A stretch of DNA of 64,000 bases from Shigella phage vB_SsoM_113. Below are positions 4,927 to 40,072 of this stretch, piece after piece; within the stretch, counting starts at the first letter, position 1; the number at the start of each line of letters is the position of its first letter. The translations under genes and the position numbers were made by a program. The notes under the pieces were generated by a model. The model was not told the origin of the DNA, did no database searches, and saw only the letters and a program-made list of their open reading frames with translations. Where the stretch lies: sequence record LR746311. One strand, given 5' to 3'.

Positions 4927-5377
4927 GCTAGAGATAAGAAGCAATTTTAAATGGCCATCATGCGCATTAAGTAATTTTGCCCAATGGCCTTTCGTTATGG
5001 ATGGTATTCAATTTGGAGGTCTAGAAGGATTCCTCCAAGGGTGTAAGGTGAAAAATGTTGAACAACAACGTCGTATATTTGGGTTATCCGGGCTTGCCGC
5101 CCAACAGGCTGGAAGGTCTTATGCTAGAGCTCAGGACCGTGGCACGTTGTTCTGGCTTGGAGTTCCGTTTTCAAGATACTCCCCGGCGTGGAAAGAATTA
5201 TACACAAATGCATATTTTGAAGCAGCGTTCCAAAACAAGGGCTTTCGCGATGCATTACAAGCCTCGAAAGGAAAAGTTTTGAAGCACAGCATGGCTAGTG
5301 GTCTAACAAAAGATGATACAATACTAACCGAAGCTGAATTTATTGATGTGTTAAACCTATTAAGAGACTCTCTATGA
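4919..5377 (+). CDS. NADAR/YbiA-like (DUF1768-type) protein, putative ADP-ribose processing enzyme
   Basis: Track ORF starts at a TTG (4913); ATG at 4919. Motif ALSNFAQWPFVMDGIQFGGLEGFLQGCK resembles the YbiA/NADAR signature (FSNFA.WP..DG...E.FQ.K). Assigned by motif only. Confidence 0.55.
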   Translation: MSELEIRSNFKWPSCALSNFAQWPFVMDGIQFGGLEGFLQGCKVKNVEQQRRIFGLSGLAAQQAGRSYARAQDRGTLFWLGVPFSRYSPAWKELYTNAYFEAAFQNKGFRDALQASKGKVLKHSMASGLTKDDTILTEAEFIDVLNLLRDSL

Positions 5378-6213
5378 AGCCTACTATTTTAACTGATATT
5401 GATGGAGTGTGTTTAAGCTGGCAATCAGGTCTTCCTTATTTTGCTCAGAAATATAATCTTCCGTTAGAACATATTTTAAAAATGATCCAAGATGAGAAAT
5501 TTATTTCTCCAGGTAAACTCTTTAATTGTGATGAAGAACTTGGTGTCAAGCTAATTGAAAAATACAATCGATCAGATTTTATTCGTTACTTGTCTCCATA
5601 TAAAGATGCCTTGTGCGTAATTAACAAACTAAAAGAAGATTATAATTTTGTAGCTGTTACAGCGCTGGGTGATTCTATTGACGCTCTGTTGAATCGTCAA
5701 TTTAATTTGAATGCTCTTTTTCCTGGTGCCTTCTCAGAAGTAATGATGTGTGGTCATGATTCTTCAAAAGAAGAGTTGTTCAAAAAGGCAAAAGAGAAAT
5801 ATAACGTAATTTGTTATATTGACGATCTTGCTCACCACTGCGACCACGCGAGTGAAATATTAAATGTTCCGGTTTATTGGATGGCTCGAGGAGAGCGTGA
5901 CAATATTCCAAAAACTGCGCAGCGAGTTTATACATGGAATGATGTAGAAAATAAGTTTTTTTCGCCGAAGGAAAATAAAGAAAGTTTTGATAGTGAAAAA
6001 GCTATAAAAGATTTAATTGAGAAGATGGTTAAAAACGATTCTTTTCCTTGGAACACTACCTGGAAAACGCCTGGATTTAATCCTTATAATCATCTATATC
6101 ATCCATATCAGACACATCCGTTTCAGACATGGAACTACATTAAACCTGGTGGCATAGAGTATTTGTATAATAGACCTACTAGCGGTGATAATATTTTCCA
6201 AGGAGCATTCTAA
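5374..6213 (+). CDS. HAD-superfamily hydrolase-like protein (279 aa)
   Basis: N-terminal ILTDIDGV motif (DxDG, HAD motif I) and a later ICYIDD motif; start overlaps the upstream stop. Confidence 0.6.
   Translation: MKPTILTDIDGVCLSWQSGLPYFAQKYNLPLEHILKMIQDEKFISPGKLFNCDEELGVKLIEKYNRSDFIRYLSPYKDALCVINKLKEDYNFVAVTALGDSIDALLNRQFNLNALFPGAFSEVMMCGHDSSKEELFKKAKEKYNVICYIDDLAHHCDHASEILNVPVYWMARGERDNIPKTAQRVYTWNDVENKFFSPKENKESFDSEKAIKDLIEKMVKNDSFPWNTTWKTPGFNPYNHLYHPYQTHPFQTWNYIKPGGIEYLYNRPTSGDNIFQGAF

Positions 6214-32020: not shown

Positions 32021-32021
<1 letters not shown>
31782..32021 (-). CDS. 67: prohead core protein gp67
   Basis: 79 aa; poly-D/E acidic C-terminal tail. Confidence 0.8.
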
Positions 32022-33646
<1,625 letters not shown>

Positions 33647-33678: not shown

Positions 33679-34170
33679 TTATTCCCAATAATCGAGAGCG
33701 AGAGTTACTTCAAAGGTTTGGATTTCATTGTTTGAATCCCAATCTAATTGAAGTTCACCCACGTTAGTAGGCCACAGGCCTTTAATTTCGACTTCTTTTG
33801 TTACAGTTTTAGCATCACGAGCATATTGGCGAACAACAGCGCTCTTTTTATACTCTGCTGGTTTTCCACCAGTAATTTCGTTCCCTTGCCCAGCAGCAAT
33901 GCTTTGCCAATCAACAAACTTCTGGCGAGCATCATGTGCCTCATCGTTCATTACCGTAACAGTCCAGTCATCGAATGTACGATCGCCTGCTACGTTAATT
34001 TTACGGTTCATAAAACCGACTGGAATTTTTTCTACAATACCAGCTGGTAAAGCAGTGGCTTTACATTGAAACGTAAAATTTTGTCCAAGATAAGAAATTT
34101 CTACTTGGAATAAGTTAGGTCGAGCAAAATCACCAGATTCAAACGCTCGTGTTACATCATCTACAAACAT
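33679..34170 (-). CDS. 19: tail tube protein gp19
   Basis: 163 aa as in T4. Confidence 0.92.
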   Translation of the reverse strand: MFVDDVTRAFESGDFARPNLFQVEISYLGQNFTFQCKATALPAGIVEKIPVGFMNRKINVAGDRTFDDWTVTVMNDEAHDARQKFVDWQSIAAGQGNEITGGKPAEYKKSAVVRQYARDAKTVTKEVEIKGLWPTNVGELQLDWDSNNEIQTFEVTLALDYWE

Positions 34171-34184
34171 ATTAGCCTCTGTAG

Positions 34185-34192
34185 TATTTATA
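34185..34192 (-). promoter_or_regulatory. late promoter for gene 19
   Basis: + strand TATTTATA about 15 nt upstream of the gene 19 start. Confidence 0.45.
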
Positions 34193-34243
34193 TCCCTATG
34201 TTTAACCTAGGGCATATAGAATTAAAGAATTAAGGATATAGTG

Positions 34244-34251
34244 TATTTATA
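34244..34251 (-). promoter_or_regulatory. second late promoter motif upstream of gene 19, downstream of the HNH ORF
   Basis: + strand TATTTATA between the HNH stop (34278) and the gene 19 start. Confidence 0.4.
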
Positions 34252-34277
34252 TGGCCTGCCGAAACAGGCCTTTAGAA

Positions 34278-34835
34278 TCATTCTAGTAAATCCCAAAGAT
34301 CTACGCTATTTCTTTTTGACTTTTCTCGGTTAGATTCCCAAGTGATTATTTCTAAATTTTTTACGCTTGCTATAATTTCCGGCGGAATTAAATTATCAAA
34401 TCCATATTTGATAGATACTTTATGATCAAGTTGGTAAGCACCTTCTACGCCGCACACTCCTATTTTATCAGCATTCGGCCATTTTGACCAAATTTTTCTT
34501 ATTTTAGCTGACTTAGTTATAGAATGAACTCTACTAGCATATAATGCAAACTCTTTTCTTTTACCAGTCCATCGAGGATGTTTATCGCCTCTTTGCCATG
34601 GTCTGCTTATTCCAGATTGAACTTCCGAATTTTTAATAGCAACCTGTTTAATGCTACATTTTCTACATGCATGTGTGGGTGTTCTATTTAAAAGCTGAAT
34701 GCTTCTACTAAATTTAATACCACACAAATCACATTTAGCGTCAACTATTTTATTACTATTCTTTGGCATTAATTCTATTGGAACAGATATTGTATCATGA
34801 TATGATACTTTATATCCCAGAATTGTCGACCACAT
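34278..34835 (-). CDS. HNH homing endonuclease inserted between genes 18 and 19
   Basis: C-terminal HNH motif (QLDHKVSIKYGFDNL...EIITWESN) and Cys-rich zinc-binding segment (CDLCG...CRKCS). The track ORF extends to a TTG at 34919 inside the gene 18 terminator hairpin; I prefer the internal ATG (residue 29 of the track ORF). Start uncertain. Confidence 0.7.
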   Translation of the reverse strand: MWSTILGYKVSYHDTISVPIELMPKNSNKIVDAKCDLCGIKFSRSIQLLNRTPTHACRKCSIKQVAIKNSEVQSGISRPWQRGDKHPRWTGKRKEFALYASRVHSITKSAKIRKIWSKWPNADKIGVCGVEGAYQLDHKVSIKYGFDNLIPPEIIASVKNLEIITWESNREKSKRNSVDLWDLLE

Positions 34836-34892
34836 TTTTGAATGATTTCTTGGTTTTATTGTAACAAACTTAGAAATAATCACTTGTTTCCT

Positions 34893-34908
34893 CGAGAATA
34901 GGGGGCCG
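34893..34908 (-). terminator. stem-loop downstream of gene 18
   Basis: GGGGGC-CGAA-GCCCC immediately after the gp18 stop. Confidence 0.45.
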
Positions 34909-34923
34909 AAGCCCCACAATCAA

Positions 34924-36903
34924 TTAACCTGCAAGACCAGTTAACTCATCGAAATCTGCACCAGTAGCAGTTGCGACGAAATTAAGTTGGATATAATTTA
35001 TACTACGAGCCGGTTGAATGTAGAATGTTGCAACAAACTCATTTCTATCAATTACTGACGGAGTGTTATTTGTTGTATCGCAAACTACACGATATTCATA
35101 AATTCCACCGAGAGCTTTAATTCCCTGTAAGTATTGGGCAGTTTCTGTGCGGAATGATGAACGAGTAAACGCGTTGTTTAATTCGAACAAACGATATTTT
35201 GAACTACGTCCGATATTCGTTTTCAACATATTAAACAGACGACGAACGTTAATACGATCAAATGGAGAAGGAACAGAAGTAGCTGTTTTATCACCATACA
35301 GTACGTAACCATCACCACCTGTACCAGTTACTGGGTTGATAGCTTCTTGATATAAACGGTCGCGCTGAGCTTGGCGAGTTTCAATAGCAAGTTTAATAAC
35401 GTTAAGAATCTGGCCACGATTATAACCAGCTGGAGACATCCAAGTCTGAGAAACGTTATCAGTTCTCGCGCATAAACCAGCAATATCAGCTGCTAATGGA
35501 ACCCAACGATTCACATCATTATATTTGTCATACTGATACTTGTAGTTACCATCGATTGCTGCATAGGTTGAACTGATATTAAAGTTATTATCAGTGTATG
35601 AACCTGCTGCGGTTCTCCAATTGACTAAGTTATCAACAGCGCGAGTTACAGGAATTCCAACTACAGTTTCGCGCGGCGGTGAGCACAGTACTAGGCAATC
35701 TTGGCGAGCATCTCCAATTGAAACGACGTGTTTTTGGACAGTAGATGCTGTTTCTAAAGATTCACCGGCACAAGAACCCGCAATAAACAACTGAACGTCA
35801 ACAGATTCGCGGTCAGCAAAGAAGTCCCAAGCTTCCATCAAATCTCCTGCTGTTACTTCAGCATTTGATGATAATCCACCAGACAGAGTTAAAATTCCAG
35901 AGAAGCCTTCTGGCCAGTTTTGCGCAGTTGCGAAAATATATTCTGAACCACCTTTTGCGAAAAAGTCATCAATATAGATGTTACTATCGTAAATATCTTT
36001 TTCACCTCGCTTTGTCGAAAGAACAACGCTTTGAACAATAGCATCGTTGCGACGAACTATAATAGCGTATTGTGAATCAGTTTGTGGTCCATATCCAAAC
36101 ACTGCTTTGGCAGTAGATGCGCGTGTTCCGCCACCTGGATAAATTGGAAGTAATGCAGAAGCACCTTTTGCGTAGTCAGCTTTAGATACGATTTCAATTT
36201 CGATTTTATCGCCCAACTCGCCTGGATAAAGAGCTACTACTCCAGGAATTCCATATTTTTCGAGATTTGCCTGAAAGTCAACAGCTGTCATAGCAGCTTC
36301 GGCATTTTCAATTTCAGCTAATAAAATACCAGAATCAGTAATAATTTTTCCAAGAGTTATTACTGCAGCTAAACCAGAGGAAGACGAAGAAATTTCCGCG
36401 GTCCAATTAGAACCTAATGCTGGATATTCGCCTACTTCTTTTGCTTTAGCGATAATTTTTGCGGTAGGAATATTAATTTTCTTAATTTTTCCATCAGCAT
36501 CTACTTCGGTAACTTTACATTCTGTTTCAACATCTTCTGAAACATACTTAACCGTGATTTTATCTCCAACCGCGTAGTTACTACCTGGGGTAGAAATAGT
36601 GTATTCAATATTACCGGCAATCGGAGATGAGTTTTTAGCGGTATCTCTATCGACAGCACGCACGACTCGCAAATCATTTCCATATTGTAAGAAATTCATT
36701 GCAGACATAAAATAGTCAGCAGTTTCAGCTGTAGGTTGACCAAAAGTATTAACTAAATCTACTTCATTTGTAACCTGTTTAATTTGAAAAGCAGGACCCC
36801 ACTGGAATTTACCGGCCAAAGCTGCTGTACCAGTAGAGTTATTAACCACGGTGCTTTGAACCGTAGTTTCTTTGAGCTCAATGCCCGGAGATAATAAAGT
36901 CAT
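34924..36903 (-). CDS. 18: tail sheath protein gp18
   Basis: 659 aa as in T4. Confidence 0.95.
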   Translation of the reverse strand: MTLLSPGIELKETTVQSTVVNNSTGTAALAGKFQWGPAFQIKQVTNEVDLVNTFGQPTAETADYFMSAMNFLQYGNDLRVVRAVDRDTAKNSSPIAGNIEYTISTPGSNYAVGDKITVKYVSEDVETECKVTEVDADGKIKKINIPTAKIIAKAKEVGEYPALGSNWTAEISSSSSGLAAVITLGKIITDSGILLAEIENAEAAMTAVDFQANLEKYGIPGVVALYPGELGDKIEIEIVSKADYAKGASALLPIYPGGGTRASTAKAVFGYGPQTDSQYAIIVRRNDAIVQSVVLSTKRGEKDIYDSNIYIDDFFAKGGSEYIFATAQNWPEGFSGILTLSGGLSSNAEVTAGDLMEAWDFFADRESVDVQLFIAGSCAGESLETASTVQKHVVSIGDARQDCLVLCSPPRETVVGIPVTRAVDNLVNWRTAAGSYTDNNFNISSTYAAIDGNYKYQYDKYNDVNRWVPLAADIAGLCARTDNVSQTWMSPAGYNRGQILNVIKLAIETRQAQRDRLYQEAINPVTGTGGDGYVLYGDKTATSVPSPFDRINVRRLFNMLKTNIGRSSKYRLFELNNAFTRSSFRTETAQYLQGIKALGGIYEYRVVCDTTNNTPSVIDRNEFVATFYIQPARSINYIQLNFVATATGADFDELTGLAG

Positions 36904-36931: not shown

Positions 36932-40072
<3,141 letters not shown>

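Follow-up and report, generated by a model that had tools for sequence, protein, structure and literature searches.

The DNA analyzed here is a 64,000-nt stretch of Shigella phage vB_SsoM_113 (LR746311), and the whole stretch is designated as the window. The source region is that of a T6-type Tequatrovirus, with an identity of 98.7–99.6% to T6, PST, WL-3 and others. Between the tail sheath gene (gene 18) and the tail tube gene (gene 19) lies an open reading frame (ORF) for an endonuclease-like protein, and the region around its start codon is complementary to codons of its own HNH-like motif far downstream. The resulting stem is present in the sequence, is conserved and covarying among homologues, and is dominant in the predicted fold of the mRNA. 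The late genes of the region are all on the minus strand, in the order 17, 18, ORF, 19, and 20 (Table 1).

The inserted cassette and its ORF

An earlier reading of this DNA, made without database searches (the sequence-only reading), had interpreted the ORF as an HNH endonuclease gene inserted between genes 18 and 19 and carrying an inverted repeat; as a whole, this interpretation is supported in part. The insertion is upheld by the alignment with T4, in which the 645-nt cassette is a clean swap for the 8 nt TACGGTGC of T4, immediately 3' of the gene 18 stop codon TAA (34924–34926). The T4 junction of genes 18 and 19 reads GGTTAATACGGTGCATTCTAAAGGCC, and the same empty junction is seen in T4, RB14, FelixPlatter, and Manna. 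Past the cassette, the identity with T4 restarts at ATTCTAAAGGCC, followed by a native hairpin and the two late promoters of gene 19. No target-site duplication was found at the cassette junctions, between TAA on one side and ATTCTAAAGG on the other. Among seven Tequatrovirus genomes, the approximately 200 nt 3' of the insertion site (window 34050–34278, the intergenic region and the 5' part of gene 19) show 0–3 differences, and the final 90 nt of gene 18 show many synonymous differences.

No late promoter motif TATAAATA separates the ORF from the gene 18 stop codon. Upstream, the nearest site is that preceding gene 18, and the closest downstream site is the first of two that serve gene 19 independently of the insert (Table 1). 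A scan for sigma-70 promoters and terminators yielded consensus-level matches alone, at the chance rate. Because it has no late promoter of its own, the inserted ORF can be transcribed solely as the terminal part of the abundant late mRNA of gene 18, and it is a promoter-less cassette that is read through from the sheath mRNA.

The start codon of the ORF is GTG at 34883–34881. The N-termini of 30 homologues from many genera begin with M-I-I-(S/T/D)-K where GTG 34883 falls, the PHROG 5104 alignment begins at residue 13 of the TTG-started ORF, the T6 annotation T6ORF160 is the 606-nt form, and the Shine-Dalgarno sequence GAGGA is located 5 nt upstream. Neither of the two starts considered by the sequence-only reading, TTG at 34919 and an internal ATG at 34835, is therefore retained. 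Its size range of about 186–213 aa holds insofar as a 213-aa ORF started at TTG (34278–34919) exists in the ORF list, but the true product is of 201 aa. Several homologues (P0001, P0013, P0016, P0018, P0020, and P0024) are likewise called from the upstream TTG or other upstream codons in their records, at 212–220 aa. The upstream TTG had been placed inside a gene 18 terminator hairpin. The UUCG tetraloop hairpin that follows the gene 18 stop belongs to the cassette, lacks a U-tract, and gave no terminator-like score in the terminator scan, and it is probably not an efficient terminator.

In the protein, a Cys4 zinc finger at the N-terminus is combined with an HNH-like nuclease core at the C-terminus. 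Among the 30 homologues, C51, C54, and C73 are invariant and C76 is almost invariant, and a weak match to the DUF4379 treble-clef domain was obtained in 9 of them (best E = 0.002). The C-terminal third has the invariant pattern G..CG..GAYQLDH...GF...NL...W..N..K, and D153, H154, N176, N185, and K188 are invariant across the 30 homologues, which provides the general-base His and the Asn/His ligand of HNH nucleases. The catalytic core conforms to the beta-beta-alpha fold of the HNH superfamily. The sequence-only reading was thus right about the presence of a C-terminal HNH motif and a Cys-rich segment, but the latter is N-terminal to central and lies outside the HNH motif.

No HNH match was obtained for the window protein with Pfam, where 1 of the 30 members reaches HNH_4 at E = 0.078, or with NCBIfam, and the profile search against PDB returned zinc-finger matches only and no HNH. 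Weak matches were seen in PHROGs to 'HNH endonuclease' (E = 0.004) and 'homing endonuclease' (E = 7e-4); the family itself is PHROG 5104, whose function is given as unknown in the database. The protein is best treated as a putative divergent HNH-type nuclease, which is backed by fold and motif and not by profile. In this it differs from the free-standing T-even HNH endonucleases MobA-E and from small HNH nucleases of other phages (Gme HNH 4h9d, GVE2 HNH 5h0o, and T5 SciA), as the window protein has no significant HNH-family profile match. Its N-terminal Cys4 finger is DUF4379-like, unlike the usual accessory DNA-binding modules of HNH nucleases. The nuclease domain is also present in other domain contexts: one relative of 288 aa (P0047) has a different N-terminal architecture, and many environmental phage contigs (L132–L194 from JGI metagenomes and L031–L095 from IMG/VR) match the C-terminal HNH-like domain only, at residues ~100–200.

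No description of the ORF or of the stem was found in the published literature searched; for T6, merely '1 other HNH' is listed (Petrov et al. 2010). GenBank labels for the ORF and its neighbours (H1, H15, H16, H26, H76, and others) include 'putative head morphogenesis protein', 'holin', and 'type II restriction endonuclease', and the tail tube protein gp19 is labelled 'tail fibers protein' in some such records.

Table 1. Features of the gene 17–20 region of the window
Feature	Position	Strand	Evidence or remark
Gene 17	36935–38767	-	
Late promoter TATAAATA upstream of gene 18, nearest upstream late promoter for the inserted ORF	36932–36939	-	motif sites
Gene 18, tail sheath, 659 aa	34924–36903	-	ORF list; T4 and T6 annotation
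Inserted cassette, 645 nt	34279–34923	-	pairwise alignment with T4
GGGGC-UUCG-GCCCC tetraloop hairpin, cassette-borne, just after the gene 18 stop	34902–34915	-	sequence; in the minimum-free-energy fold
Outer helix, 5' strand UUCUCG (and adjacent GGA), extends the stem over the Shine-Dalgarno sequence	34893–34898	-	minimum-free-energy and centroid folds; pairing probabilities
Shine-Dalgarno sequence GAGGA, 5 nt 5' of GTG	34889–34893	-	sequence; predicted mostly paired with a partner >300 nt away
Stem 5' arm, -3 to +23 from GTG, start codon and codons 1–8	34861–34886	-	repeat search, folds, covariation
Putative endonuclease ORF, 201 aa, GTG start 34883–34881, TGA stop 34280–34278	34278–34883	-	homologue N-termini; PHROG 5104; T6 annotation
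Cys4 zinc-finger segment (C51, C54, C73, C76)	34656–34733	-	residue conservation; DUF4379 similarity
HNH-like beta-beta-alpha core, residues 148–188, GAYQLDH...GF...NLEIITWESNREK	34320–34442	-	
Stem 3' arm, in HNH-motif codons V-K-N-L-E-I-I-T-W	34339–34364	-	repeat search, fold, covariation, synonymous conservation
Outer helix, 3' strand CGAGAA, codons R-E of N-R-E-K	34323–34328	-	minimum-free-energy and centroid folds
Hairpin GGCCUG-UUUC-GGCAGGCC, native intergenic, outside the insert	34253–34270	-	identical in T4
Two late promoters TATAAATA serving gene 19 independently of the insert	34244–34251, 34185–34192	-	motif sites; identical in T4
Gene 19, tail tube, 163 aa	33679–34170	-	ORF list; T4 annotation
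Gene 20	32021–33607	-	

The long-range stem and its conservation

The 17-bp inverted repeat reported by the sequence-only reading is confirmed computationally. The sequence TTAGAAATAATCACTTG occurs exactly twice in the window, at 34870–34886 on the plus strand and at 34339–34355 on the minus strand, and none of 100 dinucleotide shuffles contained two matches with 2 mismatches allowed. The arms extend to 26 nt, of which 24 are complementary (92%) with 17 perfect pairs, and 496 nt lie between them; on the mRNA strand, the 3' arm is 541 nt downstream. The longest perfect complement of the start region in its own downstream sequence is 17 nt for this ORF, versus 5–11 nt for the 67 other window ORFs of at least 100 aa. 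A transposon or miniature inverted-repeat transposable element with terminal inverted repeats was rejected as an explanation of the insert, since the arms are internal, 36 and 60 nt inside the insertion boundaries, and the insert lacks a target-site duplication.

When the 701-nt mRNA was folded, the stem appeared in both the minimum-free-energy and the centroid structures (z = -5.3 versus shuffles), and the outer helices UUCUCG/CGAGAA and GGA/UCU carry the predicted stem over the Shine-Dalgarno sequence. The predicted pairing probability is ~0.9–1.0 from about -13 to +22 in 13 homologues with a GTG start. By prediction and covariation, the Shine-Dalgarno sequence and the start codon are thus included in a stable RNA structure, as is characteristic of the regulatory hairpins of T-even endonuclease genes. 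For the start region, long-range pairing averages 0.89, versus 0–0.60 in 23 other window ORFs of similar size. The second-highest value in this control set, 0.60, belongs to a 279-aa ORF at 5374–6213 on the plus strand of the window. No Rfam family matched in 34100–35100.

The stem is kept in homologues that are merely 40–68% identical, from Tequatrovirus, Dhakavirus, Karamvirus, Gaprivervirus, Jiaodavirus, Gelderlandvirus, and metagenomes. The longest perfectly paired run is 21 nt in both UP19 and Roth19, 20 nt in RB3, and 17 nt in STP4-a, and the duplex energies are -23 to -38 kcal/mol in 15 of the 16 sequences of this GTG clade that were compared. In these 16 sequences, 74% of the cells are paired, versus 35–49% in slid registers, and the covariation score is 0.112, versus 0.080 +/- 0.006 in shuffles, a value reached by none of 500; seven pairs are altered on both sides. 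AUU/GAA is replaced with AUC/GAG in Roth19, STP4-a, Merci, and P0014. In P0010, an A:U pair is changed to U:A at -1 and the stem is lengthened to -7. Three consecutive pairs flip in P0016, from UUUCU/AGAAA to UAGAU/AUCUA, with Ser4 replaced with Asp and Glu178 replaced with Ser. The distal extensions of the window, UP19, QL01, and P0002 differ in sequence, and their complementarity is kept.

Synonymous conservation is seen in the same place. In the 3'-arm codons, the commonest codon has a median share of 0.94, versus 0.69 at other conserved residues (p = 8e-5). TTA encodes Leu177 in 15 of 16 sequences and ATA encodes Ile179 in all 16, other conserved Leu/Ile residues have commonest-codon shares of 0.31–0.69, and the adjacent C-terminal codons vary freely. 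This conservation of codon choice specifically in the arm bears on whether the complementarity is a functionless by-product, arising as M-I-I-S-K-F and N-L-E-I-I-T-W are near-antisense peptides and the gene ends were spread by recent recombination. The stem-less distant homologues still have MII(S/D/T)K and NL(E/Q)(I/M)(I/L)(T/P)W, and mosaic alleles with shared ends exist, as such an origin would predict. It is nevertheless highly improbable: the pairing is made by codon choice, compensatory changes include non-synonymous ones on both sides, and a second stem of another sequence, described next, lies partly in the non-coding leader, with the type of start codon following the pairing partner.

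The GTG-clade stem is absent from a sister clade with an ATG start (P0007, P0023, P0030, and P0036). There, UUCAGGAACAAUAUGAUUAUU, which covers the Shine-Dalgarno sequence, AUG, and two codons, is fully complementary (21 of 21 positions) to GAUAAUCAUAUUGUUCCUGAA, which encodes D-N-H-I-V-P-E, ~13 codons upstream of NLEIITW. P0030 has a compensated variant, GGAGUAAU with AUUACUCC, in which Val is replaced with Thr, and P0008 has a shorter, 12-bp version, GAAGGGCAUAUG with CAUAUGCCCUUC, encoding N-I-C-P-S. These compensatory changes in P0030 and P0008 join the untranslated leader and codons. The start codon tracks its partner by clade, GUG with CAC and AUG with CAU, and the 5' partner is the ribosome binding site in every register. 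The duplex z-scores are -5.3 to -8.5 over both registers.

It is also conceivable that the repeat acts in DNA, either as inverted binding sites of the endonuclease for autoregulation or self-protection, or as substrates for recombination or inversion of the ORF core. I-TevI binds an operator resembling its own homing site (PMC2988022). Watson-Crick covariation is equally expected from two copies of one protein-binding site, and the mismatch spectrum lacks a preference for G:U over A.C. Such a role is nonetheless very unlikely, as three different 5'-arm sequences are used by the clades and all of them overlap the ribosome binding site and the start codon, the arm length and the distal extensions vary by lineage with complementarity retained, and the arms are 500 bp apart within the coding sequence of a promoter-less cassette, not at a promoter. 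The three registers centred on the start site, the synonymous conservation, and the compensatory changes in the leader argue most strongly against both the DNA-level and the by-product explanations.

The long-range stem was not found in distant members of the family (Acinetobacter phages, the CHI14/Bp7 type, phiM7, and environmental contigs), in which the duplex z-scores are above -2.7. Scans of IMG/VR and JGI metagenomes returned mainly distant relatives without the long-range stem, so that the stem is confined to the enterobacterial T4-like clade. Several of the distant stem-less members carry their own TATAAATA immediately upstream. In three Acinetobacter phages (L011, L022, and L025), TATAAATA forms part of a perfect hairpin, GGCUCUCUAUAAAUA...UAUAGAGAGCC, immediately ahead of the homologous ORF; this hairpin-embedded promoter is the classic T4 arrangement, another regulatory solution in the same gene family. 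In the CHI14 and Bp7 types, TATAAATA lies ~4–5 nt ahead of ATG.

Distribution of the gene and candidate homing

The ORF is not universally present between genes 18 and 19. Among 501 matching T4-type records, the T4 junction is uninterrupted in 382. The carriers comprise ~74 records with the T6-type allele, which is that of the source phage, and ~48 with a second, RB3-type allele. The gene is thus present patchily at one precise locus among close relatives, with identical junctions, which is the pattern expected of homing endonuclease genes. With tblastn, the family was found in 242 phage records, down to ~30% identity, and 232 of these 242 matches are near full length, indicating mostly intact ORFs. 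At all of the ~30 loci inspected, the gene directly follows the sheath gene, ahead of the tube gene. These loci are from Tequatrovirus, Dhakavirus, Karamvirus, Gaprivervirus, Jiaodavirus, Gelderlandvirus, Winklervirus, Acinetobacter Hadassahvirus, Aeromonas Ceceduovirus, Sinorhizobium phiM7 (where the gene precedes an annotated tail protein), and metagenomic contigs.

The RB3-type allele is 50% identical overall to the T6 type. Between the T6 type and the RB3 type (L007), the leader, the first 6 codons, and the last ~70 residues are almost exactly shared; similarity is only distant in the zinc finger and the middle of the protein, and a PLGAVKHGF segment is additional in the RB3 type. In other proteins, the N- and C-halves are joined in other combinations (P0013, P0014, and P0017 were among those compared). 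This mosaicism suggests that the presumed DNA-recognition part is swapped between conserved gene ends.

Endonuclease-like genes are not limited to a single copy or to this junction. In Enterobacter phage KMB20 (L005), tandem paralogues at 1201–1800 and 1910–2602 are located between sheath and tube genes; they are 31% identical to each other's type, and the annotated end of the second overlaps the start of the tube gene. In QL01 (L010, from 2585), Bp7 (L014, from 2469), L096 (from 1615), and L102 (from 2068), a further endonuclease-like ORF, annotated as HNH endonuclease or with a faint NUMOD3 match, is located between the tube and portal genes. The sheath-tube-portal intergenic sites may be a hotspot for endonuclease-like genes.

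The patchiness within a genus and the strict position specificity fit a free-standing homing-type endonuclease gene, as judged from the distribution of sequences. The same strict position, in three Straboviridae subfamilies and in the Sinorhizobium phage, would also suit a domesticated or otherwise useful nuclease, acting in exclusion of competing phages, defence, or counter-defence, that descends vertically at the locus and is often lost, and is not an active homing endonuclease. The mostly intact ORFs and the flank haplotypes common to gene-less phages point in the same direction. This explanation is rather unlikely, since the within-genus patchiness, the identical clean junctions, and the two mosaic alleles compose the classic picture of a free-standing homing endonuclease gene, which the KMB20 tandem pair likewise fits, and since a homing enzyme aimed at a conserved site would yield strong position specificity too. 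The gene itself is of an ordinary, if unannotated, free-standing phage endonuclease kind, and the novelty lies in the long-range stem over its translation start.

Proposed translational control and known systems

It is likely, with a probability of about 60%, that a self-contained long-range mRNA stem blocks the translation of this promoter-less homing-type endonuclease gene. In the proposed mechanism, a stem of ~21–35 bp, with about -30 to -40 kcal/mol, would pair the Shine-Dalgarno sequence, GTG, and the first 7–8 codons to the HNH-motif codons ~540 nt downstream. Transcription of the 3' arm would close the ribosome binding site, and initiation would be largely confined to the few seconds (~540 nt of transcription) before the polymerase makes this arm. 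Further initiation could occur as a translating ribosome reaches the 3' arm and opens the stem, and with a weak GTG start such a ribosome relay would die out. The stem and the weak GTG would together limit how much of a possibly harmful nuclease is made from a late transcript that is stable and very abundant. As both arms are inside the mobile cassette, the control would move with the gene.

The same duplex could instead serve mainly as an RNA processing or stability element, in which RNase III cleavage destroys the endonuclease message and parts the gene 18 and gene 19 portions, or the closed panhandle shields the late transcript from endonucleases. With 21–26 bp, the A/U-rich duplex is close to the smallest that RNase III accepts as a substrate, and the retroregulation of int by lambda sib is a precedent for message destruction through RNase III cleavage. 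Both independent stem types settle near 21 perfect bp with the duplex energies given above, and the stem is located between two highly expressed genes, with gene 19 under its own promoters. However, the Shine-Dalgarno sequence and the start codon are at the centre of the 5' arm in each of the three registers, a placement needed for a translational block and not for cleavage. Processing as the main role is therefore unlikely, and processing and translational repression can coexist.

Several points weigh against the translational block and the homing-type nature of the gene. The folds are predictions, not RNA or in vivo measurements. Some members of the GTG clade have weak stems, with -15 kcal/mol in P0039 and essentially none in P0009. 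G:U and A.C mismatches number 5 versus 10 in the core and 17 versus 11 over the wider stem, counts by which a stem in sense RNA cannot be told from a repeat at the DNA level. Since both arms are coding and the family had MIISKF and NLEIITW ancestrally, some of the complementarity is obtained for free. Because the sequences share common descent, shuffle statistics overstate their independence; in the mosaic alleles, the gene ends, with the leader and C-terminus shared by the T6 and RB3 types, appear to be co-inherited. As for homing, no carrier-specific co-conversion signature was seen in the flanks of 7 genomes, and the flank haplotypes of carriers recur in empty-site phages, the window and T6 being like RB14, and RB3 like FelixPlatter. 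Homing is thus a candidate property, judged from the distribution of the gene.

The locus offers testable cases of an RNA structure constraining protein evolution at two distant sites, of translation controlled kinetically or by a ribosome relay in a DNA phage, and of the way in which a selfish gene can persist within the late operon of sheath and tube. A likely function and a corrected start codon are also obtained for PHROG 5104, which is widespread and is labelled 'hypothetical protein' in T6, RB3, and many therapeutic T4-like phages. More tentatively, the panhandle is possibly a general portable design for promoter-less selfish genes, which would be silent on the mature mRNA, be expressed in a brief self-limiting burst during transcription, and have the insertion looped out, in effect, at the RNA level at little cost in an essential and highly expressed late operon. 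Such a design would have arisen at least twice in the family, in two registers, forcing the N-terminus and the HNH motif to co-evolve as antisense partners.

Homing endonuclease genes must spare their host phage, and the known T-even answer is a local hairpin with a late promoter. Concealment of the ribosome binding site by such structures is a well-documented means of controlling T-even homing endonuclease genes (PMC2988022). In the hairpins of I-TevI, I-TevII, I-TevIII, segB, and Aeh1 mobE, as at the present locus, a selfish endonuclease gene is located in a host transcription unit with its Shine-Dalgarno sequence and start codon buried (PMC2988022), and low or delayed expression would be the shared purpose. 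The T-even hairpins are local, and transcripts avoid them by starting at a late promoter located within the 5' strand or after it (PMC2988022), whereas the partner here is 496 nt off. Unlike those hairpins, the stem contains no internal late promoter, so that every full-length transcript can close, and the coding sequences of the two arms co-evolve in such a way that they stay paired. The locus thus suggests another, fully self-contained answer, a 0.5-kb stem from the ribosome binding site to the codons of the gene's own catalytic motif, kept by compensatory change even at amino-acid cost and with a second register in the sister clade.

Two further systems are similar to the proposed control. 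In the RNA phage MS2, the long-distance Min Jou interaction controls the translation of replicase, and the maturation gene is translated on nascent RNA only. As proposed here, long-range pairing hides a start, and translation takes place in a kinetic window or after a ribosome melts the partner. MS2 differs in having an RNA genome and a coupling between different genes, whereas the 3' partner at the present locus is in the same ORF on a late mRNA of a DNA phage, and the kinetic window is a proposed one. In IS10 and IS50, fold-back structures inhibit transposase translation on read-through transcripts; as in the present case, a gene of a mobile element would block its own start by RNA pairing under outside promoters. 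The partner in IS10 is an upstream leader found in read-through transcripts only, and the element has its own promoter, whereas here the partner is downstream and read-through is the sole source of the transcript.

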